Made by a program: the position numbers and the translations under genes. A stretch of DNA of 64,000 nucleotides from Cyanidioschyzon merolae (lineage: Eukaryota), in assembly GCA_000091205.1 (NCBI GenBank), contig AP006494.2, one strand, 5' to 3'. Positions 3,823 to 56,157 of this stretch are shown one piece after another (position 1 is the first letter of the stretch; the number at the start of each line of letters is the position of its first letter). The notes below the pieces were generated by a model that made no database searches, was not told where the DNA came from, and saw only the letters and a program-made list of their open reading frames with translations.

Positions 3823-6800
3823 TCGGCAAGCCCCAAAGCCGCACGCATCAAGGGCTCCAACTGGAACTGCCAACGCTGGCTGGAGTTCGGGACCGTTCGC
3901 GCATCTGCTTTGTTCGCCATGCGTACGATTCGCTCTGTGTTCCATCGGATCCGTCGAGGTGCATGCACATTGCACAAGTTTGTGCGAACCACAAGGCATG
4001 CTGGTGCGAATGACCAGATGGCGCGAAACGCTGAAGATGAGAATTAGACACGCAAGAGGGAGATTATGGTGCTTTTAAATAAAGCGGTCTTCGGGTCTGG
4101 AAAGTACTCGATTCCGTGAGCTCTGGCTGGTACGATGCCGCCACCGAGGCGGTGTGCGCACATTTGGAAACGACGACGCGGGTGTGCTCCTGCCAGCGAC
4201 GCACGAGATCGAAACTAGTTGGTAGATAGTGTTCACAGACGTAAAGATATGCTCAGTAGTTTCGAACAATGGAATACTGTTATTGTTCATGAAATCTTCA
4301 GGAAAATCTTCTAGGCATTTGCATAGGGCGTTGCAGCCTTGCTGGATCGCTGCGCCGCAATCGTGCATAGACGCAACCAAGGATACACGACCTCTTCTCA
4401 TGGCTAGCAGTTTGTACTCATCGGAAATCCTCGGGATTTCAGCGCAGAGCCCAACTTGACTATGGAACGATTTCCTCGAAAGCTCGATCGACGGAAAGCC
4501 GCTGGATTCTCCATGTACAAAAAACATTGCCAGATGTTGATCGAAGCATTCACGCACTTTAACAGTTGTCGGCTACAACCAAACAACGCAGCTTATCGGT
4601 CATTTCCCACATATTCCAACTCACTGAGCTAGTTCGTGAATGCACGATTTTGCGTCCGTGGAATCGAAACTGTTGGCGAGTCAGGTGCGGAGTCATGCAC
4701 GCCTATCGACGATCATTCCCGTCAGCTATTTGGAGGTTCATATTCTCTCTCCGTGGGACCTCAAAAGTATCCCACGCCGCTCGATACATTGCACACAGCG
4801 TCGCAATGCATCATGATGCCGTCACTCCATTTGCCTGTGTGCCGCCTGGCGTCCATCGTACCCGATTCTCAATGATACTGAGCCTTTGAGAAACTGGGTA
4901 ACCTCATGTATTTCCCATTCAGGTCATTGACTCTGTCTTCTTGACTCGCATATGCGGGCACAGAAGTGAGATTCTTCAAACGTGGATCCACGCGCACCAC
5001 ATAGCCCTTCGCCTCACGAAACTTGAACTGTTGAAAATGGAAATCGATGCGCGACTCAGCCCTGGGTGTCAGAAAGTGCATGCATATTGATATCTCGACA
5101 CTCTTCATGGTATCTGTTCACTTCTGTTCATTGCTTCGCTTCAAATGTGGAACATTGAACGAGCTCCGCCAGTGATGCTGGCGAATTCGTACGAATGTTT
5201 CGTGGTTGCTCGCAACGACTGCCCGCAGACCACTGAGTAGGTGGTAACACAGAGTAAACAGGTAGCTACGATTACGGAATATGGCTTGACACACAGGGGT
5301 CACATCCAGTAGGAGCTTTTGGAAGCAGAGGGCGTGCTCAGATCCGAGGAGAAATTCTGCTTTGCATTGGAGAGTTCTGGTCAGGGAAACCACGTAGCGT
5401 AAACTGAAAGCGAGGAACTCATCACGTTCCGTCCATGCATTGGATGTGACGTCCATTGCTCCCAGGCCGAGAGCAACTCCATGAGCTTGGACGCTCTACA
5501 GCCCGTCTCGTTCTCGGTGCGACATCGCTTCTGGACTCGCTACCGACACAAGCGCATCCGCCTCAAGCTCTCCATTTGCCATCATGGACACACCACGAAT
5601 ATTTTAATACAGTCCCCAATTTTCGGGGCAAGCGAGGCTAGAACAGCCTCAAGGTATTTCTCGCGGAGCGCTTGATACTGACTCGCATTTGATGTTTGCG
5701 GTTGGTCTGATACCTTTCGGCACCTGCGATGAAGGTGCTCCGGTCGCCGGCGTGTCAGAGAAGTCGGGGACGCGGATGTACAAGTCCCGAATCCTGCGCT
5801 CAGGCTGTAATGCATCTGCTGGACGGAGTATCACTTGTGCTGTCGAATGAATTTTTATTCGAAAAGTATCGGGAGAATCTGGACATTGCCCGCCCTGTGT
5901 ACACAGCGCTTTCGAACAGTTGCTTTCCTGGATACGTCAGGGCGAAGGAAGCTATGTGATCCGTTATAGAATGAGAATTTACTCGATTCCGAATGGTCGC
6001 CTCCATTGTATACTGTCGAATATGCTCCCCGTTGATGAATTTTTTCAGATGACCATTAAAGTGTATTCAAACTAGTCTCTCGTGGACGAAGATTACTCTC
6101 TTCTGTCCCAGTCCGGGCTATTTGCAGGACGATGCTTCTCTCTATTTTGTGGTGATTCCTTCTCCTTCCCTTTGGTTCGCTTTCTTGTTTACCCTTGGCG
6201 TCGCATTCTTTTTGTCGCTAGGCTCTATATCAGTTTTTTCCAGGGGATGCACAGGCACTGGGTAGACGGTAAGATTAGAGGTCGCCTTTGCTGCGTATGG
6301 AACAGTCATCTATTGCGAAAGTACTTTTCGTCTCCTCCTCCGTGGCGAGCACGCCCACGGATGGAATGCGCTTTTCTGCTCGATCCTGCGCACGAGCAGA
6401 GGAGCAGCGCAACTATCATTGTCTAGTGAAGTTAGAGAACTACTTGTTGAGAACCGATCTGTCAAATAGCTTCGGCGCAAATGATTTGAACCAGCTATCT
6501 ATTGATCAGCCCGCGAAAAAGTCGCTTTTGACGACAACGAAGGCGTCTTGCGCACGACTTGACCATGCACCATAGGTTGGTTCGAAGCGCAGCTTAACAC
6601 CAATCACAGCGGCGAACCCCTTGACCGCTTATCAATGATGGGCAGTAACCTTGTGCTGCAAGAGGATAGAGAAACATGGGAAGGGGAAGTCATCAATCAT
6701 TTCCGCAAAGGATGAATCGTCGAGCGACCTCGTCCGTCTCGCGATTTTTCCGGGCCGCCGCACAGCTGAATCATTTCCTGGTCTGATCTTGTCATCCTTT

Positions 6801-20911: not shown

Positions 20912-22299
20912 CAGACCACAGATCGGAAACCAAACTCCTGAAGTACCGCTTCAGTCTGTCAGCGGCGAGTCTGAACGAACTGTTCTCAACAGAAGGTTTT
21001 CCATGACCAACGGTTGGCTGCGCGATGAGGCCACTGGCGTCTACCACAGCAGCGAGTCTCATTTGTCGCAATTGCGCCGTTGTGTTGCGAATGAAGTGCC
21101 GGACGATCTAGGGCGACGGCGGCGTTTCGGCAGCGTCGATACGCCCGTGGATGCCCAGCGCGCGCTCCAATGAGCTTTCGGATCTGCATGCGCTGTTTCT
21201 CGTTTTTCAATTCCATTGCGTTCCACCCGCCGGTGTGTGTTATCAGATGCTCTTTCGCTGTTTATAGCAAACGTGTTCGATGTTCGTTCATGTGAAGACC
21301 TAAAAAATCCAAGGGAAAACGATGGACATGAAAATCGGAGATCCTGGGACCCGGTCACGCCGGCTGCAGGAAAAACACGCAAAAATTCCTACGCTCGCCG
21401 ACTATCGAGCGATGCAACGGAAGAACAAGCAGAACGGAGATATGAGAGAAAAAGAGTTTGCCCGACGAGACGATTTGGAGGCAGTAGTGACAATGTGGGC
21501 ACGAGCTCTAGGAATCCTCGCGTTGGTGAGTGCAACCAGAGGCAATAGACGCATAGAGTTGGAAAGCGAGACCACAACCCCGCCATCAACACCGGACGAC
21601 GCGTGGTGCGGAAGAAAAGACCCGAGGAGCTGACGCGATCGAACCTCGTGGACAGCCTTTCAGGATCGAAGTATATAGGCCGAAACTGAAGCTTATAGCA
21701 GGCAGCCAGTCCGAAAAGTTAGGGAGGCGTCCACGAGAGGATGTACATATTTACCCTCTACGATCGTGAAACGTGATTCGTTTTAATGATCACATCTGTT
21801 GCTTGGGGTCAAGAATCCATTTTTTAGCGAAGACTTGTATCGTGTAAGCTATGCAGGAATACGTTTTCATAGAATTGTATGGAGCACGTTGACGACAACC
21901 GTTGTGCTGACCTGAGAGGGACGGAATTCGCGGAAAATGGCTTGGATTTTTATCCAGGTGTACTTACGATCCCCCGTCTGAGCGGATGGAACGTAGTTGA
22001 ACTGCTCAGCATTTGCGGGCGTACTTGCGCCGAGGGGGAGCTCCAATCCTACGCATCAATTCCATGTTAGACGAGTTGCAATATGCCGGCGGGTGAAGTT
22101 CTGACCCAGGACCATGAAATAAGCAAAGACTTGACAACAAGTGTCCATTCAAGCGATGACCAGGGAAGAGATCCGATTTCCTCCGTGGGCGCCAGTTCGA
22201 TCGAGGTTGTCGGAAACGTGCTTACCTGAACGAGGCCATGCGTCGGCCCCGTAACCAGGGCCAAAGCACGTCGTTTCAAGGCCTGCAGTGGAGAGCGCG

Positions 22300-30677: not shown

Positions 30678-31507
30678 GAACGCATGCTGCGTGAATTCGA
30701 GCTCAAGTGTCTTAAATACTTTCTTCAGATATTTGAAGAAATGCATCGCCACGAACATTGTGTTCGCCAATCGATCTGCCACCAGCGATTTCCGAATCCC
30801 TGACCGATCCACGGCACCGCGGAGCGCTGGCACGTCCACTCGACGACAGCCACTTCGGACGGTGCGCCCTGACTCGGCCTCCACAGAGAGGCACCCCGGT
30901 GCTGCCGCATCGCCCTGCATCCACAACGGCGGCATGCAGATCGCCCCAGCCAGCGTCGCTGTGTGTGGATCGTCGCGCATGCTCGGATCGCGCGATCCGC
31001 TCGCCTTCAATGCGACAGGTGCTCCAACGCTTTGCCACGTGTCCGTTGCTGAATGCGTGCAGTCGCTATCGCCGTCACGCACGCACGCATGCACGCATGC
31101 GGACGTATGGCGGTATTGAGGCGTGTGCATTGGCGGGCGCTCTTTCTGGCACTGCAGCCGGGTCCAGCGACAGGCACGTGGCTCAGGGAGCAAGTAGTAA
31201 CGCCTCACCAGCATCGAGCTTGCGACGTGCAGGAGTGTACGCGGTGCATCGATGGAGACACGCCTACGGACACGTGTGCGACATTGGACTCTGGCAGTGG
31301 GCTGGCCTAGTCAGAATGCACTGACGGAGAGATGCAAATGCACACCTATAAAGCATGGATTTCGGCGAGCAACCAGGAGCATTTACAGTACACCACCCGA
31401 AAGATCCATGCAAGCAAACATTTCGCAGATACTCTGGGCGGCAACCAGGAAAACTGGACGTACACACATCCAGATCATACACACAGACCTGCGTCCCGCC
31501 CAAGGCC

Positions 31508-33433
31508 CTAGCTCGAGACCTCCGCCGAGTCGCCACCGCTGAGCCAGCGCGTGTGCCACCGCCGCCCCGGATCGTCCAGACGCTCGTAGCCGTGCGAGCC
31601 GAAGCAATCCCGCTGGGCCTGAACCAGCTGGCTTGAGCGCAGCACCGCCTGTCGATACGTGTCGTAGTACGAAAGGCTCGCGGTCAGCGCCGGCGCCGGC
31701 ACACCCAGCGATGCCGCCAGCCCGACAACACGCCTCCAGCTCTCGTGGCGACGTCCAATCTCCGCAGCCAGGTCAGCGTCCAGCAGCAGATTCGGCAGGC
31801 TGGGGTCTCGTCGAAAAGCGCCCTCGATCCGCTCAAGCAGCTGTGCCCGAATAATGCAGCCGCCCTTCCAGATGCGCGCAAGCTCCCCGAGATCCAGCGA
31901 CCAGCCCTGCTCGCCGCTCGCTCGCTGCAGCAGACTGAGACCCTGCGCGTAGCTACAGAGCTTGCTGCAGAAGAGTGCGTCCTCAATAGCAGCGATCAAC
32001 GCTCGCTCCGCCGATGCATCCGAACGCGACGTCGACGCCGACGCTCGTACAGAGCCAGACGCTAGGGCGGCGACACGCTCGGGAGCTGTGTCCGGTCCAG
32101 TTTCAGCTACACCGCCAGCGGCTCCGGGTGAGGCACCGGCGGCCGCCAACTCGGAGGCGTGCCCCGTACCCGAGAGCCGCTCGGGTCCGCGGAGCACCCG
32201 CGACGCACGCTCGCGCTCGTCCTTCCGCGCTGAGAGGAAGCGCCCGTCGAGCGCGGCAGCGATGGTCGGCACCGCCACGCCCCGCCGCAGTGCCTCCGTC
32301 ATCGTCCACAGGCCAGTGCCCTTGCTCTCACTCCGGTCGAGGATTTGGTCTACGAGCGCTGGCGCCGACGCTGCCGACGAAGACGTGTCAGGCACGCGTA
32401 GAATGCGCGCGGTAATCTCCACGAGGAAGCTTTGCAGGGCGCCCGCGTTCCACGAGGCAAATACTTCCGCAGCCGCCATCGCATCCAAGCCAACGGCACC
32501 CCGAAGCAGGTCGTATGCCTCGCCGATCAGCTGCATATCGCCGTACTCGATCCCGTTGTGCACCATCTTCACATAGTTCCCCGAGCCGCCCGGCCCAATG
32601 TAGGTAACGCACGGCCCAGAGCCGGGCACCTGCGCCGCAACCTGCTCCAGCAGCGGCGCAAGCTGCTGGTACGCCTCCCGTGAACCGCCCGGCATCAGGG
32701 AAGGCCCGTAGCGCGCACCCTCCTCGCCACCGCTTACGCCCATGCCTACGTACAGGAGGCCGCGTGCCGCGACAGACGCAGCACGTCGCTCCGTATTCTC
32801 GTACCACTCGTTGCCGCCGTCCACGATGATGTCGCCCGGCTCCAGAACCTCAGCCAGCGCCTCGACGGTTGCGTCGACTGCGCTCCCCGCCTTCACCAGC
32901 AGGAATACCCGCCGCGGACGCTTCAGCGAAACCACAAACGACCGCAGGTCCGCAAAGCCGGTAACGCTCCCGCTGGCTGTCGTGTCATCTGCCGCGAGCT
33001 CCCGCTGCGCCCGCTCAACAGTCTCCGCCGTCCGCGCATACGTTCGATTGTACACAGAGACTCGCCAGCCGTGCGACGCTAGGTTCAGTGCAAAGTTCTG
33101 ACCCATGACCGCAAGGCCAATGACACCCGCGTCCGATATTGCGCGACCTGCAGGATGTGACGACGCGCTTTCCCGGACAGCACTCGACGGAGACGAGCCC
33201 TCCGCCGCAGACATGACGGCAGCACCACATGCTTGTGCGCGGCGGCCTCGGAGCAGGCACCAGCGAGCGCTTCGGACCAAGCTCAGGCTCCATGTCGGGT
33301 ACGTACGCCTGGGTGTCCAGGAGTGCGCACGCGGAGGCGCCCAGCGTCCGAAGCGCACCGCAGCGACAGGTGCGGCGGCCCAGCACAGCGCACCGCCACT
33401 GGGACTCCGGCGAGTGCCCGCTGTCGTCGCCAT
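31508..33433 (-). CDS. 6-phosphogluconate dehydrogenase (decarboxylating), with an N-terminal presequence and an Ala/Ser-rich insertion
   Basis: The ORF-track start at 33487 is GTG; ATG is at 33433. Motifs: IGLAVMGQNFALNLASHG, GGNEWYENT, GMGVSGGEEGARYGPSLMPGG, GSGNYVKMVHNGIEYGDMQLIGEAY, GTGLWT, WKGGCIIRA, DCFGSHGYERLD. Confidence 0.9.
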   Translation of the reverse strand: MATTAGTRRSPSGGALCWAAAPVAAVRFGRWAPPRAHSWTPRRTYPTWSLSLVRSARWCLLRGRRAQACGAAVMSAAEGSSPSSAVRESASSHPAGRAISDAGVIGLAVMGQNFALNLASHGWRVSVYNRTYARTAETVERAQRELAADDTTASGSVTGFADLRSFVVSLKRPRRVFLLVKAGSAVDATVEALAEVLEPGDIIVDGGNEWYENTERRAASVAARGLLYVGMGVSGGEEGARYGPSLMPGGSREAYQQLAPLLEQVAAQVPGSGPCVTYIGPGGSGNYVKMVHNGIEYGDMQLIGEAYDLLRGAVGLDAMAAAEVFASWNAGALQSFLVEITARILRVPDTSSSAASAPALVDQILDRSESKGTGLWTMTEALRRGVAVPTIAAALDGRFLSARKDERERASRVLRGPERLSGTGHASELAAAGASPGAAGGVAETGPDTAPERVAALASGSVRASASTSRSDASAERALIAAIEDALFCSKLCSYAQGLSLLQRASGEQGWSLDLGELARIWKGGCIIRAQLLERIEGAFRRDPSLPNLLLDADLAAEIGRRHESWRRVVGLAASLGVPAPALTASLSYYDTYRQAVLRSSQLVQAQRDCFGSHGYERLDDPGRRWHTRWLSGGDSAEVSS

Positions 33434-33777
33434 CCTTGAGGCGATCCACAGGTGGTTTGCGTGACCGAGGGCGGCCGGCCTGTTCACCGGGTGCGCCTCC
33501 TCGGTCTGCCGCGCTCTAGACGGGACAGCGCGCAGCGACTGGCCGTCTGGTGCTGCTTCCGGGACTCCTCAGCTGCCGATCCTGTGCCCCGGCGCGAGCA
33601 CTCGGCGACTTGACGTCTGGTGCTCGCTCAAGTCTCTCACGGTCACTACGACAACACGCACGCTCAAAAGCTGAGCACAGCGGAAAACAAAACCGATCCG
33701 CGATGCACGGGGGTGCTGCAGATCGATGCAGTCCGCGTCACGAGTTCTCGCAGTAGCACGAATACCACCGACAATAA

Positions 33778-33798
33778 CAGCAGCAGCAGCAGCAGCAA
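33778..33798. repeat. (CAG)n trinucleotide microsatellite
   Basis: Direct read: cagcagcagcagcagcagcag. Confidence 0.8.
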
Positions 33799-34876
33799 GC
33801 AACGCAACGTACTCGGTCCACAAACAGCCGCAGTCAGCGACGAATGAGCGGCTCGCTCAGTAGCTCGCAACTGCAGCTCCAGCACGAGTACGGAACGGAT
33901 CGCAGACAGCCGCCACGAGGCCGCAGCGCTACGCACAGCGCGCGACGCACCGTCAAGCGCTATCCTGCGCTGACGGCCGCCGCAGCAACGCAGGCGGATC
34001 GAATGCGCACGGGTATATATATGAATATGGAACCTTAATCATCACTTGCGTTCAAACCATAGCTGGAAACACCGCGTCCCATCTCGAATCGCGAAGTTAA
34101 GCAGCATTGGGCTCTCTGAGTACTGTGATGAGGGATCGCACGGGAAACGGGAGTGACGCAAGTTCGCTTTTGCCACCACGTCGCGCTGACCTGTTCTAAA
34201 GCGCGCATCAGCAGACGCGAGCCGGGTAGTCTGGCGGGGAAGCACTGTGAGGCCGGCTTGCTCCGGAATACACTTGCAACCGGTGGTCCAGATCGACGAC
34301 GATAACGAGTGGGTAACTGCGGAGGCCTGGTTGCACAGAGCGATCTTGCAGCGCTACGAACCGCAACACCTGCCGATATTCTGGAGGAGGTGCGATCGCC
34401 CCCGCACGACGAACCCCGTAGCACCCAGAGGGAGTACGCACCCGCGCTACACCATGAATGCTAAAAAGGGCGGCAGGGCAGGGGCTGTCGCCCCGAACGC
34501 GTATTGCAGACAAACTAGCGCGTCACGTTCATGTGCGTCGCGTTCTAGTCCGTCGCACAGCAACAGGAGCACTGGAAAAGATCATAAGCCAGCATGCTAC
34601 CGTGCAGCGCACTGTACCGCCTTCGCTTTACGTCATACGGAACTAGACAGGAAAGTTGCCACCACGCCAGCCACGACTCCATCGATGCGAGCATCGCGCG
34701 TGCGCACGCGTGCCCGTCGCATCGACCCCTAAGCCGCCGTGTACCGAACACAACTGCCTCCGTTCGTCGCGAATGCGCAGCAACCTTCCCTCTGACACAG
34801 AAAAACACATCGTGTCCATCACAGACGCCGGTGACAAGGCCGCGTATAGCACCAACGAACTCGCCACGAATCCGCA

Positions 34877-37800
34877 TCAGCATTGTTTGCGAGTATCTCG
34901 CGCCACGGTCCATTCCGGGATCGAGGCATTCAACGCCGTCGCCGGGGATGCGCCCAGAGTCGCCGTGCTCGAGAGCGCCTCGCGTCGTGCAACTAAATTC
35001 AAGCGCTCTGCGAAAAGCTCCTTCCGGTAAATCTCTACCTGCTCCCGCTCCCGAAGGAACTCCTCTTCGAGCTGCTCAAGTACTTTCATCTTTTCTTCGA
35101 GTTTCCTCACCTGAGTCTCGATCGCCTGTTCAGTAGCCCGGTGCAGCTCTAGATGCTCAATGGCGGCGAGCTCCGCGGCCCGAGTGGCCGCAGCGCCAAG
35201 CGCCGTTGCCGCAACGGCCTGGATTGCATTCGCATCCGCAAGCGCTTCCGGTGGTGCGTCGCTTTTCATGATCGCTGCCAACGCGGCCCGGGCAGCAGCA
35301 GCAGCGACATCCGGCGAGACGCTGTTCGCGAGAAACGCAATATGCGCCATCAAGGGGTTTCCGGCGTCGGCGAAGAGCGGCGGCTCGTTTCGTTCGGTCT
35401 GCGCCGTCTCGCCAGCTACAGCGGGTACCGCTAAACGACTCAAATCATCCTCGAGAAACGGATCTTCAATGGGTAGACGAATGAATTTGGTGATGCACGC
35501 ATCGCGGGAACGAGTGCCAACGTGCTGAGCAACCGCATCCCAGTCATCACCGTATGCCTCGATTCCTTCGAGAAGCTGCAGCACCTCAACATCAGTCCAG
35601 TCGTCCGTGCTCGGAGCTGTGAGGGTTCCAGTGGCGCTAGCCGCCGACCCCAGCGATAGAACAGGTCTTAATTCGATGAAATCTTTTCCATTGAAGTCCT
35701 CGGGAAACTTGCCCTGATGGTAGCATTCGGGGCACAGGTCCATATCGGCCTTGAGCAAACAGTGGTACCGGCGTTGGGAGCAGTCTCTCCCGCACACGTC
35801 ACACTGGTACTCAATGGCTGCCGCTGCGGCATATAATTCACGGCGCGTTGCCATGGGCGCCAGATGCATGCGCGATTTCGGAATACGCGACCCGTCGTCA
35901 AACAAGAATATGCGAGGAAGTCCGCCCTCAAGACCAGCTGAGCTTGCTGCCAGGCTTCCCGAGCTGGTGGAGATAAGCGTCGCACCGGAACCCGAAAACC
36001 CGCCGCTAACAGTCTGTGGGCGCGTCTCGGGTGCCACTCCGTAGTTAATCAGGCCCCACTGCTCCAGAAAGGCGTGCACACGCATGACGGCACCCACATC
36101 GCCAGCGAGATGCCTCCGAACAGCTGTGCCTGTTAGGTAGCGGGTCGGATCCTGCCGCCACGTGTCAATCATAAAATTTCGGTAAAGCATGTATACTTCG
36201 GGCGTTTTCGAAGCAAATTTCCCAGAGAAAAACTCCGGCAACGCGCGTCGCTCAATGTCGTGAATCGCATCGATGCGAAACCATCGGCTGTGCGCGGGAA
36301 CACGAATCGGCGACTTTTCACCAATCGCCGTGGCAGCAGCCGCAGCCGGAAGCGTTTCCCGCTCCGCGAGGCCACCGAGTGCCTCGGCGACGCGACGCGG
36401 TGCAAGCGATTCTCGATCACGTGGCGCGTGTGCTGCCGGCCCCGGAAGCGCATCCTCTTCGGCTGCCGCAGCGTCATTCCGCTCTTTTCGTCGTTCGCGT
36501 AATGCTTCTCGCTGCTGTGCTAACCTCTTCTGTAGCTGCTCATCCCGCGAAGATGCAGTTACATTGCGCATGCGCAGTGTCGCGTCATCTGGAACTAGCG
36601 GACGCACCGCTGGGCGTGAAATGCGCGGTGCAGCGCCGGCCGCAGCGCTTGGCTGCTCCGCATCGACCGCAGCGCCAGTCTCCGTTGTGAACGTGATCGG
36701 GCCAGCAATATTCGGTGCCGGAACTTGCTCCGCGGGTGCATTGCTCGAGCTTCCCGCGTCCTGGCTCGCTATCGGCGGTGCCAAGCGAACCTTGATCTTC
36801 ATCGGCTCTGCGGATTCCTCTCGGACGGCGCGCACCGTCACCCGTTCTGGCGTGCCGTCTGGCTCCGGCTTCACGGGACTCGGTTCAGCGGATTTTCGTT
36901 TCGACGGCGTCGGTGCTGCGGTCTTCGACTCGGATCCTCGCAGGTGGCCATCGATGCGCGAGGCCGATGGCGGTTTCCACTCATCGACATTGAGCTTCTC
37001 CTCTTCGGGTATTACCTCATAGTCGTTTTCATTGCACCACTCATTGAACTTTTCGCAATCCTCGAGAAATCTTTTCTGCACATGCCATATTTTGCCCTCA
37101 ATCACTCCGGAGAGATTCTCCTCCTCTCCGTGCAGTTCGCCGTCGGGATCTTCTACCTCCTGAGCGGGAATCCATGAATCGTACGAATCGGGAAAGTACC
37201 ACCAGTGCGTCAGTACTTGATTCCCTTTCCTTTTCAGACTCACGCAGTAGTCCTCTGCCTCGGTCTCAGCCTCTGTCGTGCCGGGTGGATCGGGGTACAC
37301 AATATGTGTTGCCTCGCGAGGCGACGAAACGACGGACGCACCATGCTTCCTTGCAATGGCGCTGAGGCGGTCAATCTCCGCCGAACCCAATGCCGGTGCG
37401 AAAAACAACCGCGGCATCTGGAGCTGTTTCCGTTTTATCAGTTCCCGCTCAACTTCTTGGAGCATCTCTAAAAAAACTCCAGTCATATCGGGTTTGTGGA
37501 GATCAAAACGCCGTATTCCACGAGCAACCCTGAACCGAAAACAGCACTCGAGAATCGTACGCAATGAGCCGTGTGCCGAATAGTCGTGAAAGAGACGATT
37601 CGGCAGTTTCGTCATGAAACCCCGAATTTCTGGCGGCTCGACGGAGTTCCGTCCGAGAACCCGCTCTTGAAACTGAAGCAGGTTACCGGTCAGGAGGCTC
37701 AGCGCGCGCGGGGAGACGTCCACAGAGTCGCCGGGTCGAAACCCCAGTTGTTCCGGCGGTTCAGCGTTTAGCTGTGCCGAGATTGCCTCGAACTTCGCAA

Positions 37801-38044
37801 TTTGATGAGGATCCTCGTAGTCTTTCATGGATATATTACAGGACTTTACCCGCTTCCGCCGCGAATCCGCAGGTCTCTGACCTTCAGCTGACGGAAAAGC
37901 AGTGTCTTCCCGCGCATCCGCTGCAGCTCCTGTGCGCACTTCTTCAGACGGGGTAGACGTCGACTTGTTCCCGTCCGGGATGTGTGTTCCGTTGCCTTGC
38001 TGCTCTCGCGCGGTGCGGGAGCGTCTCTTCCGCGGGGGAACCAT
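34877..38044 (-). CDS. SWI/SNF complex subunit SWI3/SMARCC homolog
   Basis: SWIRM domain (IPAHSRWFRIDAIHDIERRALPEFF...YRNFMIDTWRQDPTRYLT...VHAFLEQWGLINY). ZZ zinc finger (YQCDVCGRDCSQRRYHCLLKADMDLCPECYHQGKFPEDF). SANT domain (DDWTDVEVLQLLEGIEAYGDDWDAVAQHVGTRSRDACITKFIRLPIED). C-terminal coiled coil / Leu zipper. The ORF-track start is GTG at 38053; ATG is at 38044. The conserved N-terminal region begins near MKDYEDP (about 37837), so the true start could be there. Confidence 0.85.
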   Translation of the reverse strand: MVPPRKRRSRTAREQQGNGTHIPDGNKSTSTPSEEVRTGAAADAREDTAFPSAEGQRPADSRRKRVKSCNISMKDYEDPHQIAKFEAISAQLNAEPPEQLGFRPGDSVDVSPRALSLLTGNLLQFQERVLGRNSVEPPEIRGFMTKLPNRLFHDYSAHGSLRTILECCFRFRVARGIRRFDLHKPDMTGVFLEMLQEVERELIKRKQLQMPRLFFAPALGSAEIDRLSAIARKHGASVVSSPREATHIVYPDPPGTTEAETEAEDYCVSLKRKGNQVLTHWWYFPDSYDSWIPAQEVEDPDGELHGEEENLSGVIEGKIWHVQKRFLEDCEKFNEWCNENDYEVIPEEEKLNVDEWKPPSASRIDGHLRGSESKTAAPTPSKRKSAEPSPVKPEPDGTPERVTVRAVREESAEPMKIKVRLAPPIASQDAGSSSNAPAEQVPAPNIAGPITFTTETGAAVDAEQPSAAAGAAPRISRPAVRPLVPDDATLRMRNVTASSRDEQLQKRLAQQREALRERRKERNDAAAAEEDALPGPAAHAPRDRESLAPRRVAEALGGLAERETLPAAAAATAIGEKSPIRVPAHSRWFRIDAIHDIERRALPEFFSGKFASKTPEVYMLYRNFMIDTWRQDPTRYLTGTAVRRHLAGDVGAVMRVHAFLEQWGLINYGVAPETRPQTVSGGFSGSGATLISTSSGSLAASSAGLEGGLPRIFLFDDGSRIPKSRMHLAPMATRRELYAAAAAIEYQCDVCGRDCSQRRYHCLLKADMDLCPECYHQGKFPEDFNGKDFIELRPVLSLGSAASATGTLTAPSTDDWTDVEVLQLLEGIEAYGDDWDAVAQHVGTRSRDACITKFIRLPIEDPFLEDDLSRLAVPAVAGETAQTERNEPPLFADAGNPLMAHIAFLANSVSPDVAAAAARAALAAIMKSDAPPEALADANAIQAVAATALGAAATRAAELAAIEHLELHRATEQAIETQVRKLEEKMKVLEQLEEEFLREREQVEIYRKELFAERLNLVARREALSSTATLGASPATALNASIPEWTVARDTRKQC

Positions 38045-38054
38045 GAAAAACACG

Positions 38055-39730
38055 TCACAGAGTTACTAGCTCCACCGAAAGACTTTCAATAGTCGATAGC
38101 TTGAATATCAGTATACAGTAGTGGCGAGCTGCGCGCCCTAGATCATACGTCTCCAACTGATGCGCAGATGCCTCCCTGTCTTTTTTGGACCGGCCATCTA
38201 CTACTGGTTTCAACTTGTTTCCGTAAAATTCCACCTGGAGAGGTTCCCCCACAAAGTTGGCTCTTGTCAACTCTGGAGGCCTTCTTTCCATCACCGCACA
38301 TCTCCTGATATTGATAGCGACATTAAAGTCTCGGTTCACAAACTCCATACGTTTCTTGCCATCATTGGTTGTACTATCCGATGTGATTAGTCCACGATCT
38401 TTCGCCATCCCTTCCGGTGACTGCTTCGTCAGCGCTCCGTACTTTGATATATCCACAGGGCTCCTCTGGCACTTTTCGATCTGCACGCTCTGGAGTGTGC
38501 AACCCAGCTCATGGTGTGTATACGATGTTCGGAACTCATCTACAGGTATCGTAACGAGACGCCTTGCGCACTCCTTGTACGCTCTTGTCGTCGGAGCTGG
38601 TGGACATCCTTTTTGGGTCATCCAGCGCCCTGTTCCGCACGCTACTACGAGCCTCTGACTTTCATCCTCTTTGAAGGCACTCAACTCATTGAAAAAATTC
38701 GCGAATGCACGCGGTTTCCCACAATACAAGTTCATACGCAAACGAGCCCACCGGGGCTTTGCATACTCATTCCACAGTGCATCCCAATGAGCAACGCGAA
38801 CTTCCATGAATTCCTGACAAGCTTGAAAGTCTGCTCCGCGGCTCGTCATCTGGTTCATAGCTTCAAGGTGCTCTTGCATTCCTGCATTTCACGTCTCATT
38901 TTTCCCTCGCATTCAGTATTCCCGACTCTCGGTGATATCCCGCTCGTGAGAGGTTTAACTGATGCATGTCTTTCTGGCATAAATTGCCTTCAATACCATC
39001 CTCCGCAAGCTTGGGTACTGCGATGGTTATGATATTCGTATTCCCAGGGTCCGCGCCATCGACAATGTCGTTCTCATGCACTTCCTGCGTCGTAGGATAC
39101 ACCTGCTTCTTTTCTTCATGCTTCGTCATGGGCGATATCGAAGACGGACCAGTACGATCTGTCTCCAAGCGCCGATTGTGTACATATATGGCTACTCCAT
39201 CGCGTTCGATCATCCCCGTGAGTACATTTCGCTTGTCCTTTTTGTGACGTTTGAAATCGAAGATATTCTTCCAAGTACGTCTCCTGCTTTGTACCGGTGA
39301 ACTCTGTCTTCCTTACATCGAACTCCGGACAGATCTCCTTCATGATGCCGTACAGGATTCTGGAGTCGATCGTCACAACGCGTGACTTGATGTTGCACAA
39401 CGGCAGGACGTTGAAGTGCTTTCCCAGAAGCGCAGCCTTCCGTTTCTCCGACTCTTCATTTTTTCCCGCGCCTACGTCCTTTCCAGTCTTGCGTTCGAGG
39501 TCTCGGTCCAAAAACACGAGATAGTGCAGGATTAGGGTATAGGATCCTTTACCATATTTTTCCATATTTGATATTTTTTCTTGTGAATTCGCCAACCCCA
39601 GTACCGCAAGGTGCTTTCGAATAGCCGCGCGGATCACAGAAGCTTCATTCCTTCTCCTGCGTGACATCTTCCCGTCGACGAGTTCGATCTCTTGTGCATT
39701 CTTACTCTCGTTCGCGACGCCATTGATCAT
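38055..39730 (-). pseudogene. TnpB/Fanzor-like (OMEGA-family) RuvC nuclease gene, broken over three reading frames (39730-39116, 39213-38896, 38879-38055)
   Basis: Fragment 2 carries a RuvC-I-like motif, DIVDGADPGNTNIITIAV (GIDPG-type). Fragment 3 carries the TnpB C-terminal module YKECARRLVTIPVDEFRTSYTHHELGC....KCQRS, which is the bridge plus a degenerate zinc finger, and RuvC-III FVNRDFNVAINIRRC (DRDxNAAxNI-type). Fragment 1 starts at a verified ATG (39730) with an in-frame stop just upstream. The frames shift at about 39120-39210 and about 38880-38896. No convincing intron signals were found, so the gene is either frameshifted (degenerate) or contains unconventional introns. Confidence 0.6.
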
Positions 39731-41710
39731 GGCTCATCTCCCTTTCCGAGCGAGACCCGGGTACAGCGCAAAGACGGCGCGTACCATGAAGCGTTTGGCG
39801 TTCATGGTCATCTGCTTCCTCAGGTTCGTGAGGTACTTCATTGCCCCGTAGGCGTAGACCTACGCGAGTCACCTCTGTATCTAGAACCGCTGCAGCGGTA
39901 TTTGGGGTAATTCTCGTTGAGGGCATGCACTCGCTCATTTTCGCCGACGTTTCCCCTCTACCAACGATCAAGTGGCAAATAAAGGTCCTGCTGAAAAAAA
40001 TCCTCCGGAACCGCGACTGTTTTGATGTCTGTCAGGTCGCGATACATCTATTTCACCAAATGCATTAGTCCTGAAAGAGCCTTTACATTACTCACGGAGT
40101 ATGACACGACACGGTTTCTGATGGCCTCTCGCATCTTTGCCTTGTACGCATTCTTGGTATGTCCAAGAGGACAGACTCTCACCACCGACTCTTCGTACTG
40201 TCGCCTTTCTTGCAGCCTTTGATGTCGGGCTTCCTTCTTTTGCTCCTTCTTCTCGTCCTGTTCTTCTTTGCTTAGCACTATTTTTCATTCTCTCCGTAAG
40301 TCGGCGACACTGTGCCTCCGGGATCCTCCACTTGCTTTTCCATACCTTTCCTTTTTAATTTTTTATGAAAAATAACGCTCGTTAAACGCGTCTGGTAGAA
40401 ACCGCGAAAAATCACTTTCGTTCACTGACATTAGGATTAGAACACAATTGAATTGAAAAACTATACGTTTCCACAACTTTAATGCAAATACAACTTGACC
40501 GGTAGAGCAACAAGACAACGAATGGTCACGAATGCATTTCCCTTCAAAGGCGACATGCGCGTCGTGTCTCGAGGCTGCCAGGTTTGGAGATGCGCGTATC
40601 GAGCGCGCTATATAGAACAAAGAACAGAGACTCACTTGTAACTAGCAACGAGATAACGAGTTCTTTCCCTGTCTACGATCAACGTCAAAAATGGGGAAAA
40701 GATTTCCATATTGTCCAAAATATTCCTCATAGGCGGACGGTCCCGCGAGCCGGACAAGTCTACCAGGCTGGTGCTTCCTGCTCCCCCAGCGGCAGGCGCT
40801 TTCGTGAACTCCGAGCAGCGCGTCCGCAACGCCATTCATTGTGGAATTACAAGTCGGCAGAATGCTTCTGGGCGTGTCGCCCTGGTCGCAGAGGGCTCCT
40901 AATACGCTGCTTCACGCTGCCGCAGGCAGAGGGTCTGTCTGCCCAGGTATCAGCCTCTCAAAATGATATTTAGCCCTGATTCCGTAGCAGATGGAGCACG
41001 CCTCGAGCCGATGCCCTCTGTGGTATAAAAAAGCCGTTCTGGCTCTAAGAACTATCTGCTCCAGCTGTTCAGGCGCAAAGGCGGATACGGAAAGGCAGGC
41101 ACTAGGCACACGATAGGACATAGGAAACGACCAGAATATCCGAGAAGAAATGTAGGTAATGTAACTTGGATGTAGGGGGTTTGATGGATACTTCACCGTG
41201 CACTGAAAAAAAAACACACGAAAAAGTAAGAAAAGAAAAATGCGCTCCATCGGGGAACGCTGGCCTGCGTTTTGTCATCGCATCGCGCCGGCCGCCAGGC
41301 AGGCTCCTGCCCAGCAATCGCGTCCCTGCGCTACTGGCCGCAGCGTTTCGATGCATCGCATCTGTTTCACCTCCGTGCACTGCTGCGGATCTGATGCGCT
41401 CCGCGAGATCGCAGCGCGCAGCCGCCACCGGCGTGCTGGAGCGCGTTATCAAAATTCAAATAGCAGCAGCGGAGGCTCTGCGTACGCTGCTGGCCGTCGT
41501 CGTGCATCAGCGCTGCGCCGTCGCAAACGCTGCCTACGAACCTTGAAGTTGGCTTGTTGTGTGCTTGGTTTCGTCGAGTGGTTTCGTAGGAGTCTCGACA
41601 TTGTTAGGCCCGATATCCGCTCAAGTTTGTACTCGCAAAACGTCAGTTTGTGAAAAAGTTCTTGCTGCATAGCTTCGTATACGAAAAGATATTTGAGAGA
41701 GTTCTGCACC

Positions 41711-45194: not shown

Positions 45195-46322
45195 GCCTGT
45201 TACGCGAGGAACGCTCGCTCCGCTTCCCGCGCCTTGACACATCTCGTCACGCAACGATTCGTACGAGCTGTGGACGAAGGGATGCCAGCTGCTCATGTTT
45301 CTCTTCAGCGTCTCGATCAAACCTGCACGCGACAGCACAAGTGATGCTCGTTGCAGCAGATGCGATGAGCCCTGGTCGTGGAACCTGAGGGTTGCACAGT
45401 CGCCTCCCAGCGTCTGCTGACGAGTGGACGCGTTGGCTAGTTGCTGCGTCGCATCGCTGCTTCAGGAATCCATACGTCTGCAACGCACATGCCAAAACGT
45501 ATCGAGCCTAGCCCAGCAATCGTGTGCAGATCGCTGCGGGGCGCTTCATGAGGCGCACCCTGCCGCCGATGTCCTCGTTGCACCCGGGCCTCACTGGCCC
45601 GAAACAATGCGGAAAGCTAAAAGGGACGCTACACTCTAGATCGTAAAGAAGCGTCGAAATAGCGCTCGCGGATGATCTCGTGGCAGGTGCACACGATACC
45701 GCGCTGCTGTCGCCTCTGACTTTGACTCGACGGAGGCTAGAAGCGAGCAGTCGCCAACTTGCTCGATAAGCTGGAGAAGCGAACGACCGAGGAGTCGCGT
45801 CGATTGTTGCTTGCCTACGCAAACGGACGTGCTGGTGCGTCCGCGTGTCGCACACCAGCGCCCTCGACGGGAGCGTCCAGCGAGTACACAGGGATCGCAG
45901 CTGGGCGATTTCCCTGCAAGCGTTCGCGACGATACGGAAGCATCACGAGCGGGTGTGCGCAGCGATGCTCGCCGAGAAGCCAATCGTGAAACAGAGCCAG
46001 CTGCACGAGATGGTGCACGGTACGCTGGGCGGGCGCCAGACTGCGAGGGAATCAAAGGCGGGCCTCCCTGTACAGTGCGAGTCGACGAGCAACAACGCAG
46101 ACAGGCGCTCGCTGCACCGAGACCCGAACGCCTCGATCAGCATATGGACGAGTCACGTGCTTCCTGCGCGTCCAGCGGCGTTGTGTGGAACCATTCTTTG
46201 AGGTGATCGTTCCGTACACAGTCTAGACATTGTGCTGAAACGCTCAAGTCTATCGATGAGGAGAAATCGATTGCCAACAGAGAGAGCACGGAATGACCCA
46301 TCGGGGGCAGGGCGCTGGTACG
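45195..46322. repeat. dispersed repeat family B, copy 1 (about 1.13 kb)
   Basis: About 99% identical to 55029..56157 in the same orientation (offset 9,834 bp). At least six ORF-track peptides are duplicated verbatim (for example 45247..45495 = 55082..55330). Starts at gcctgttacgcgaggaacgctcgc and ends at ggcgctggtacgg. No recognisable protein domain. Confidence 0.85.
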
Positions 46323-55028: not shown

Positions 55029-56157
55029 AGCCTGTTACGCGAGGAACGCTCGCTCCGCTTCCCGTGCCCTGACACATCTCGTCACGCAACGATTCGTACG
55101 AGCTGTGGACGCAGGGATGCCAGCTGTTCATGTTTCTCTTCAGCGTCTCGATCAAACCTGCACGCGACAGCACAAGTGATGCTCGTTGCAGCAGATGCGA
55201 TGAGCCCTGGTCGTGGAACCTGAGGGTTGCACAGTCGCCTCCCAGCGTCTGCTGACGAGTGGACGCGTTGGCTAGTTGCTGCGTCGCATCGCTGCTTCAG
55301 GAATCCATACGTCTGCAACGCACATGCCAAAACGTATCGAGCCTAGCCCAGCAATCGTGTGCAGATCGCTGCGGGGCGCTTCATGAGGCGCACCCTGCCG
55401 CCGATGTCCTCGTTGCACCCGGGCCTCACTGGCCCGAAACAATGCGGAAAGCTAAAAGGGACGCTACACTCTAGATCGTAAAGAAGCGTCGAAATAGCGC
55501 TCGCGGATGATCTCGTGGCAGGTGCACACGATACCGCGCTGCTGTCGCCTCTGACTTTGACTCGACGGAGGCTAGAAGCGAGCAGTCGCCAACTTGCTCG
55601 ATAAGCTGGAGAAGCGATTGACCGAGGAGTCGCGTCGATTGGTGCTTGCCTACGCAAACGGACGTGCTGGTGCGTCCGCGTGTCGCACACCAGCGCCCTC
55701 GACGGGAGCGTCCAGCGAGTACACAGGGATCGCAGCTGGGCGATTTCCCTGCACGCGTTCGCGACGATACGGAAGCATCACGAGCGGGTGTGCGCAGCGA
55801 TGCTCGCCGAGAAGCCAATCGTGAAACAGAGCCAGCTGCACGAGATGGTGCACGGTACGCTGGGCGGGCGCCAGACTGCGAGGGAATCAAAGGCGGGCCT
55901 CCCTGTACAGTGCGAGTCGACGAGCAACAACGCAGGCAGGCGCTCGCTGCACCGAGACCCGAACGCCTCGATCAGCATATGGACGAGTCACGTGCTTCCT
56001 GCGCGTCCAGCGGCGATGTGTGGAACCATTCTTTGAGGTGATCGTTCCGTACACAGTCTAGACATTGTGCTGAAACGCTCAAGTCTATCGATGAGGAGAA
56101 ATCGATTGCCAACAGAGAGAGCACGGAATGACCCATCGGGAGCAGGGCGCTGGTACG
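55029..56157. repeat. dispersed repeat family B, copy 2
   Basis: See copy 1. About 10 mismatches over about 1.13 kb. Confidence 0.85.

Follow-up and report, generated by a model that had tools for sequence, protein, structure and literature searches.

This locus raises the question of what lies between the 3′ end of a Fanzor-like open reading frame (ORF) and the 5′ end of SWI3, a chromatin-remodeller gene of the SWI3/SMARCC type, in a 64,000-nt stretch of contig AP006494.2 (GCA_000091205.1; hereafter, the window) from the red alga Cyanidioschyzon merolae 10D. The genes of interest all lie on the minus strand. An original prediction placed the right end of a transposon and a candidate omega RNA (ωRNA) within 37830–38260. 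The Fanzor-like ORF encodes 274 aa and terminates at TGA 38057–38055, 10 nt from the SWI3 ATG at 38044–38042. The SWI3 ORF is read in a different frame and has a GTG at 38053–38051, and sequence reading found both its ATG and this GTG on the predicted strand and at the predicted positions. Our analysis indicates, with a probability of roughly three in four, that in this interval a fixed, dead copy of the Fanzor1 element CMe-1A (minus strand, ~41280–38073) meets the SWI3 start. The family stop codon is followed by a 65-nt tail, then by 28 nt of host DNA, and then by the SWI3 ATG (Table 1).

Table 1. Coordinates of the features discussed, in window positions.
Feature	Position	Strand	Basis or remark
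Decayed CMe-1A Fanzor1 transposon, ~3.2 kb	38073 (±3) to ~41279–41285	minus	Stacked insertions and extent of homology
Fanzor1 pseudogene	38138–40278	minus	tblastn with full-length paralogue proteins; high-scoring segment pairs in frames −2, −1, −2, −3
Mechanical ORF, 274 aa	38879–38055	minus	Fanzor C-terminal sequence down to 38187, out of frame beyond
A-run with one-base insertion, A6 vs family A5	38181–38186	minus	Alignment A2, column 151
Canonical family stop TAG, bypassed in this copy	38138–38140	minus	Alignment
65-nt non-coding tail	38073–38137	minus	Degraded remnant of candidate ωRNA scaffold and right-end cis element
Unique host DNA GAGCTAGTAACTCTGTGACGTGTTTTTC, 28 nt	38045–38072	minus	SWI3 5′ leader; no paralogue homology past 38073
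SWI3/SMARCC gene, 1055 aa	34877–38044	minus	Start ATG 38044–38042; Pfam domains
SWI3 N-terminal extension, codons 1–63	37856–38044	minus	Cyanidiales-specific
Acidic tandem repeat, ~22 aa (KDEEKKEADPATQEVEDNDLVV)	~39050–39150	minus	Just ahead of RuvC-I; alignment A1, columns 240–370
70-nt non-coding block ATTTGAATTTTGATAACGCGCTCC...GCTGCGATCTC	41392–41461	minus	Also L083 4713–4780 and L084 5109–5177
5S rRNA gene	34044–34164	plus	Also L083 9720–9840, L084 10146–10266 and L086 9342–9463
Degraded Fanzor-like fragment	4779–5003	minus	tblastn, 36–54% identity over the four fragments
Degraded Fanzor-like fragment	21567–21730	plus	tblastn; holds a C-terminus
Degraded Fanzor-like fragment	45681–45884	plus	tblastn; RWARLRMN region
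Degraded Fanzor-like fragment	55516–55719	plus	tblastn; RWARLRMN region

Identity, decay and boundaries of the element

The 274-aa ORF has 219+ metagenomic homologues that carry the motifs GADPGNTN, DEFRTS and NRDFNAAINI. Hot-spring metagenomes contain at least 468 related stretches, and family copies are 75–81% identical. In the full-length paralogue L021, the motifs GADPGN (D411), DEFRTS (T586/S587) and VNRDF (R650/D651) are spaced D-175-TS-65-RD, which fits the Fanzor motif D-X(125,275)-[TS][TS]-...-RD (Bao & Jurka 2013, PMC3627910). The window copy carries the same catalytic motifs, spread over different frames. CMe-1A was described as a C. merolae Fanzor1 element of ~3 kb, present in ~150 copies roughly 80% identical to their consensus, with no terminal inverted repeats and a single Fanzor1 ORF that remains intact in some genome copies, its termini and target-site duplications being left undefined (Bao & Jurka 2013, Mob DNA 4:12, PMC3627910). 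The element in the window agrees with CMe-1A in organism, length of ~3 kb, high copy number, absence of terminal inverted repeats, and single ORF with D...TS...RD. By this match to the published description, the Repbase consensus itself not being directly compared, it is a CMe-1A copy.

Several results weigh against this assignment. Neither the window ORFs nor five homologues had a Pfam match, and the nearest approach, PF07282 at NRDFNAAINI of one paralogue, had an E-value of 0.22 (12 bits, cut-off 26.3). Searches of NCBIfam, and phmmer and profile searches of the PDB with the Fanzor family, returned nothing significant. No C4 zinc finger is visible by inspection between TS and RD. An AlphaFold2 model built from a 36-sequence alignment reached a predicted local distance difference test score of 51.7 and a predicted template modelling score of 0.35, and a Foldseek search of this model against the PDB gave no match at E ≤ 0.001. 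Furthermore, six independent left ends display no motif attributable to a target-adjacent motif (TAM) or a target-site duplication. Since kinship with TnpB is not reproduced by Pfam, NCBIfam, PDB profiles or the model, the Fanzor label rests on the motif and on the 2013 paper. The consensus TSYTHHELGCTLQRVEMEKCQRS... contains two Cys and two His, without CxxC pairs, and may represent a degenerate HHCC site. A scan of viral contigs found no relatives of the family.

The window copy is a pseudogene, because at least four frame changes are needed to read through it. Its catalytic codons are still recognisable (D 39051–39049, E 38537–38535 and D 38330–38328). Proteins of the family end in ...GGRSKKAGRRLHVSWRRLV followed by a stop, and it is this stop that the window copy bypasses. 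The A6 run, which its strain orthologues share, shifts the frame past TAG 38140–38138, so that translation of the ORF continues to a chance TGA, and the last 42 codons of the 274-aa ORF are out of frame because the run is A6 instead of A5. The ORF thereby crosses the 65-nt tail into host DNA, and its final six codons (ELVTL and the stop) lie beyond the element. The stop at 38055–38057 that the original prediction assigned to the Fanzor gene is therefore where the ORF ends, and not the stop of the family. The prediction's claim that the last ~80 codons are unconserved and may be RNA-coding is wrong for the first ~40: the ~40 codons after RuvC-III, stretch AVLEKRPPELTRENFVGQPLKVELYEKKLEAVVGGRSKK, are conserved at the protein level in >200 homologues. 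The tail of the ORF is a +1 frameshift read-through, to which a choice between RNA-coding and protein-coding does not apply. A genuine C-terminal extension is ruled out for this tail, which is out of the family frame and ends in host DNA. Between strains (L003 and L004, 99% identical), the element diverges by 1.1–1.2%, with 1.2% in the pseudogene region, SWI3 by 0.37%, and the tail by three substitutions in 68 nt; the divergence of the element is consistent with neutral decay. The acidic tandem repeat ahead of RuvC-I is present in 1 to ~6 copies among paralogues and produces a spike in BLAST coverage.

The right end of the element was mapped by comparing paralogous insertions, as the prediction had proposed. 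We took 80 metagenome loci, containing 46 distinct insertion sites; in anchored stacks and alignments of these 46 independent insertions, the last element base of the window copy falls at 38073 (±3), inside the predicted interval. Homology to non-orthologous metagenome copies spans 41270–38109 and then drops to zero, with BLAST stopping at 38109–38116. The copies share ~60–65 nt past the stop codon, with the consensus GGCG CGGTTGCCGCC ACTACTGTACACCGCTGGCGTCGTTCGACTTTCGAACGGCGTTCGGTG, and their flanks beyond are unrelated; pairwise diversity rises from 0.44 to 0.69 at the boundary. The 28-nt leader directly beyond the right end, 38072–38045, is the same in strains L003 and L004 and contains a TAA (38065–38063) that closes the SWI3 frame upstream. 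It is also the place where a guide would lie, in keeping with the prediction that the SWI3 5′ region occupies the guide position. The left end of the window copy is without the T-run present in other copies.

Multiple copies occur on contigs L046 (right ends 940 and 4800) and L067 (866 and 4803), and also on L043/L079 and L033 (1146–1252). Several contigs hold two same-orientation copies that flank a small host ORF at a spacing of ~3.9 kb, and on other contigs a 5′-truncated copy begins ~20 nt past the right end of another copy. The paired and truncated copies suggest clustered or nested insertions.

The prediction had called for comparison with an empty-site allele, and relatives of C. merolae provide empty sites. 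The SWI3 loci of Cyanidiococcus, a related assembly and Cyanidium caldarium are syntenic with the one in the window, sharing with it a 252-aa gene that diverges from SWI3 and, downstream, a 5S rRNA gene, and contain no homology to Fanzor or to any other part of the element (L083–L086). In the relatives, 732–1533 nt separate the 252-aa gene from the SWI3 ATG; in C. merolae the gap is 3666 nt, of which only 28 + ~430 nt are non-element. A 70-nt block upstream of the 252-aa gene (by 250–310 nt) is ~79–80% conserved among C. merolae, Cyanidiococcus and the related assembly, has no match in Rfam, and is probably a promoter or regulatory element. In Cyanidiococcus, ~1.2 kb separates the block from the SWI3 ATG; here it lies ~110 nt from the left end of the element. 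SWI3 has thus lost ~1 kb of its proximal upstream DNA, or had it replaced.

Right ends beside host genes

To place the 28-nt gap among those of the family, we surveyed the 46 distinct insertions (L002–L082 plus window 38073) for a downstream ORF of ≥250 aa within 3 kb of the right end. Such an ORF is present in 37 of the 46 insertions, on the same strand in 27 and on the opposite strand in 10 (binomial p 0.008). For the same-strand genes, the distance from the right end to the first ATG has a median of 98 nt and is within 45 nt in 11 cases. Placement immediately upstream of same-strand genes is thus far commoner than expectation. Of ten such ORFs tested, Pfam confirms eight as host genes, and in two of these the domain begins within 16 residues of the ATG. 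Genes with their 5′ ends toward the left end keep 266–459 nt (n = 6, Mann–Whitney p 0.008), and where the element is absent, the tandem or divergent gaps 5′ of genes measure ≥293 nt. These spacing statistics indicate that the 28-nt gap at SWI3 is typical of the family and atypical of the genome. Of the ten convergent genes, four have their 3′ ends no more than 31 nt from the right end.

With the element in place, SWI3 transcription would now have to start within, or pass through, the 3′ end of the element. A literature search found no published transcription start site or 5′ untranslated region (UTR) data for C. merolae. One explanation of the gene-proximal pattern is that the 3′ end of CMe-1A bears an outward promoter, plausibly that of the ωRNA, which would now serve SWI3 and many other genes beside right ends and would allow such insertions to survive. 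The same-strand excess, the short right-end distances, the longer spacing retained on the left-end side and in element-free gaps, and the Pfam-confirmed status of most downstream ORFs tested all point in this direction, as does the gap at SWI3 itself, 28 nt versus 0.7–1.5 kb of element-free upstream DNA in the sister genera. However, the proximal 3′ region of the element is unconserved between strains at the SWI3 locus, and the window copy has a mutated version of a TATA-like sequence, CTATATGAG, which in the family consensus lies ~165 nt inward from the right end. Moreover, the samples are small, the first ATG of each ORF served as its start, and the same pattern could arise from an insertion preference for gene 5′ ends or from upstream read-through. 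We therefore regard promoter donation as a tentative possibility. A broader proposal, in which the outward right-end promoter makes the ωRNA, copies are preferentially retained or targeted directly upstream of sense genes, and SWI3 and dozens of other genes of the Cyanidioschyzon group are transcribed from fossil right ends, is more speculative still and seems to us doubtful.

The pattern resembles the outward promoters of insertion sequence (IS) elements and the promoters of solo long terminal repeats, in that the element abuts a gene start in the sense orientation and displaces the native upstream DNA. The difference is that the case for a Fanzor right end consists entirely of spacing and orientation statistics.

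The right-end tail as a candidate ωRNA scaffold

In every characterised Fanzor, the ωRNA comes from the right end (PMC10432273). In SpuFz1 of Spizellomyces punctatus, the guide consists of 14–15 nt of variable flank after a stem-loop segment (Saito et al. 2023, PMC10432273), and the GtFz1 ωRNA overlaps 17 codons (PMC10432273). SpuFz1 and the CMe-1A protein both belong to Fanzor1, and the CMe-1A tail, by position, takes the place of the SpuFz1 ωRNA scaffold: it stops exactly at the right end, with the variable flank next. The two elements differ in that Spu-1 has 30-nt inverted repeats and a left-end CA motif, and CMe-1A is without either; the SpuFz1 ωRNA was established by RNA-seq and pull-down, whereas the CMe-1A candidate is known from sequence alone. 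A further likeness is to ISDra2 TnpB and the IS200/IS605 family, in which the right end and the 3′ end of the nuclease gene together give rise to the guide RNA, the flank is the guide, and a subterminal hairpin at the same end also serves transposition. By contrast, the ISDra2 system comes from bacteria, has a scaffold with extensive ORF overlap, and includes TnpA (Y1 HUH) and a defined TAM, neither of which was found in CMe-1A. The CMe-1A paper predates the ωRNA, and the right end, canonical stop and 65-nt tail are newly mapped here; a literature search for a C. merolae ωRNA found none.

In the paralogues, the tail is conserved relative to the flanks and tends to fold. Diversity among 45 paralogues is 0.21–0.44 in the tail and 0.69 in the flanks. 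The terminal 40 nt have a mean folding energy of −13.3 kcal/mol and a mean z of −2.0 (34 copies), with most copies ending in a strong hairpin at the boundary. Seven 105-nt segments of tail plus flank have z values from −0.4 to −2.6, six of the seven at −1.6 or below; the stems that recur among them involve the stop codon, GGCG...CGCC and the terminus.

The terminal hairpin occurs in two subfamilies, GTCGTTCGA-CTT-TCGAACGGC and CGTTTTTC-TTTT-GAAAGGCG (A2/A5; e.g. L033 1086–1125, L043 4764–4806), which keep a stem of similar strength despite seven substitutions, with the register shifted by 3 nt. The B-type hairpin often terminates ...GTTTGTTTCCAGGGG. Compensatory changes between subfamilies A and B were considered and rejected; the difference is instead a re-registered hairpin, which pair counts cannot score.

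Other measurements weaken the case for an RNA scaffold. Tail diversity (~0.33) is not below that of four-fold sites (~0.31), except at ACTACTGTACACCGC (0.21). The covariance analysis across copies suggested by the prediction gave nothing significant: for the terminal structure, 76.4% of cells were paired versus 75.2% in shuffled alignments, with 38 of 500 shuffles as high, and for the stop-codon hairpin, 142 of 500 shuffles had as high a pair count. RNAalifold, applied to the 280 nt from RuvC-III to the flank, gave −4.9 kcal/mol, with weak stems and without covariation. An Rfam scan of 37700–41500 found no match. Because of the weak RNAalifold result, the shuffle-level pair counts, the neutral-like diversity and the absence of an Rfam match, the role of the CMe-1A tail as an ωRNA scaffold is one that we infer from position and foldability.

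If the tail has this role, the sequence of events in live copies would, on the model of the Fanzor and TnpB systems already characterised, be as follows. The tail with its three hairpins, perhaps together with the last codons of the ORF, would be transcribed outward across the right end, yielding an ωRNA that carries 14–21 nt of flanking DNA at its 3′ end. The Fanzor–ωRNA complex would then cut element-free copies of the flank beside a TAM, favouring retention of the element. The terminal hairpin may in addition serve as a DNA signal for transposition.

A DNA-level role of the terminal hairpin is equally compatible with the evidence, and the hairpin could even be purely a transposition signal of the IS200/IS605 or Helitron kind that plays no part as RNA. 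In favour of this, its end coincides with the element boundary in most copies, the two subfamilies keep it with different sequence and register, the element is without terminal inverted repeats, and the missing covariation suits a DNA palindrome equally well. However, the IS200/IS605 end serves both purposes, which leaves room for an ωRNA, and the characterised Fanzors uniformly derive theirs from this end; furthermore, no ORF for an HUH or other transposase is apparent in the ORF list of the 3.2-kb element, for which no profile scan was made, and the 3′ hairpin is the one feature of IS200/IS605 or Helitron elements that was seen. We consider an exclusively DNA-level hairpin unlikely, if worth keeping in view.

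The predicted right-end region is borne out at this locus. The prediction of a candidate ωRNA is supported in the family, where paralogues share a conserved, foldable 65-nt tail placed as in SpuFz1, but not in the window copy, whose tail has lost its fold. The 104-nt window segment has a z of +1.41, folding worse than 189 of 200 shuffles, and the terminal 40 nt reach only −5.6 kcal/mol. A functional ωRNA locus at this site, with the SWI3 5′ leader as its guide and a Fanzor protein from this or another copy, is accordingly very improbable. The tail followed by unique flank is in the correct position, and those CMe-1A copies with intact ORFs (Bao & Jurka, PMC3627910) could supply protein in trans; nevertheless, the lost fold, a terminal hairpin less than half as strong as the family mean, between-strain substitution of the tail at no less than the neutral rate, and the frameshifts in its own ORF all argue against it. 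With its frameshifted nuclease gene, lost fold and neutral-rate evolution of the tail, the system at this locus is inert.

The SWI3 start, its surroundings and the meaning of the junction

The SWI3 product read from ATG 38044 is identical to the annotated protein BAM80683.1 / XP_005536719.1 and contains, by Pfam, the domains SWIRM-assoc_2, SWIRM, ZZ, Myb and SWIRM-assoc_1, in SMARCC order. A full-length search identified orthologues in Cyanidiococcus yangmingshanensis (75% identity), the related assembly (74%), Cyanidium caldarium (56%) and Galdieria. SWIRM-assoc_2 begins at residue 70, in line with the predicted start of the conserved domain about 70 codons in; the extension before it is also conserved, with ~60 residues kept across Cyanidiales and not found in Galdieria or remoter homologues. 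Specifically, the N-terminus has the form M[VAS]P[PS]RKRRS, being MVPPRKRRSR in C. merolae, MAPSRKRRSR in Cyanidiococcus and MSPPRKRRSG in the related assembly, while the C. caldarium protein starts MPAASRRTRSS and has an extension of similar length. Because the N-terminus M-x-P-x-RKRRS is shared with Cyanidiococcus and the related assembly, ATG 38044 is, on this comparison, the ancestral and genuine start. The original prediction had offered either an insertion in the SWI3 5′ region or a mis-assigned start; the empty syntenic loci bear out an upstream insertion, and the conserved M1 and PxRKRRS show the start to be correct.

Translation from M73 (MKDYEDP; codon 37828–37826), with 37830–38072 as an ordinary promoter and 5′ UTR, would suit the Pfam boundary and the remote homologues, which mostly start 5–20 residues ahead of the conserved region (exhaustive search), but is scarcely credible given that residues 64–72 (RKRVKSCNI), upstream of M73, align with the homologues' conserved RxKSxx[IV], that the N-terminal sequence has counterparts in Cyanidiococcus and the related assembly, with an extension equally long in C. 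caldarium, and that no further ATG occurs between M1 and M73.

In the related assembly, the SWI3 gene model P0300 (L084/L085 6001–6372; 1182 aa; GCA_041825655.1 and JGI) seems ~124 residues too long, with the conserved start MSPPRKRRSG at ~6373. The 5S rRNA gene lies just downstream of SWI3, convergent to it, and is syntenic in C. merolae, Cyanidiococcus, the related assembly (L084) and Cyanidium caldarium. The adjoining part of the window, 31000–34000, is GC-rich (0.62–0.68 versus ~0.55 elsewhere), and the GC-poorest part of the neighbourhood is the element region (0.49–0.50).

Four further degraded Fanzor-like fragments are scattered over the window (Table 1), each occupying one of its longest intergenic gaps. 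The fragments at 45.7 kb and 55.5 kb represent the same protein segment and lie upstream of same-strand genes. The remnant at 21567–21730 has no tail.

What is new for this known element family is the detail, namely a mapped right end, its tail, and a bias toward gene-proximal sites. Fanzor ends, the location of the ωRNA and its transcription in eukaryotes are known for only a few species, and the sharp right end and 65-nt hairpin-bearing tail of CMe-1A provide a concrete ωRNA candidate for a red-alga Fanzor1. The SWI3 locus is a clean natural case, with a 3.2-kb transposon 28 nt from the ATG of a conserved gene for a chromatin-remodeller subunit and with empty sites in sister genera, so that both gene expression after replacement of upstream DNA and promoter activity of the right end become testable. 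Should the broader proposal above prove true, this streamlined genome would have turned the promoter of a guide RNA into one that drives host genes.

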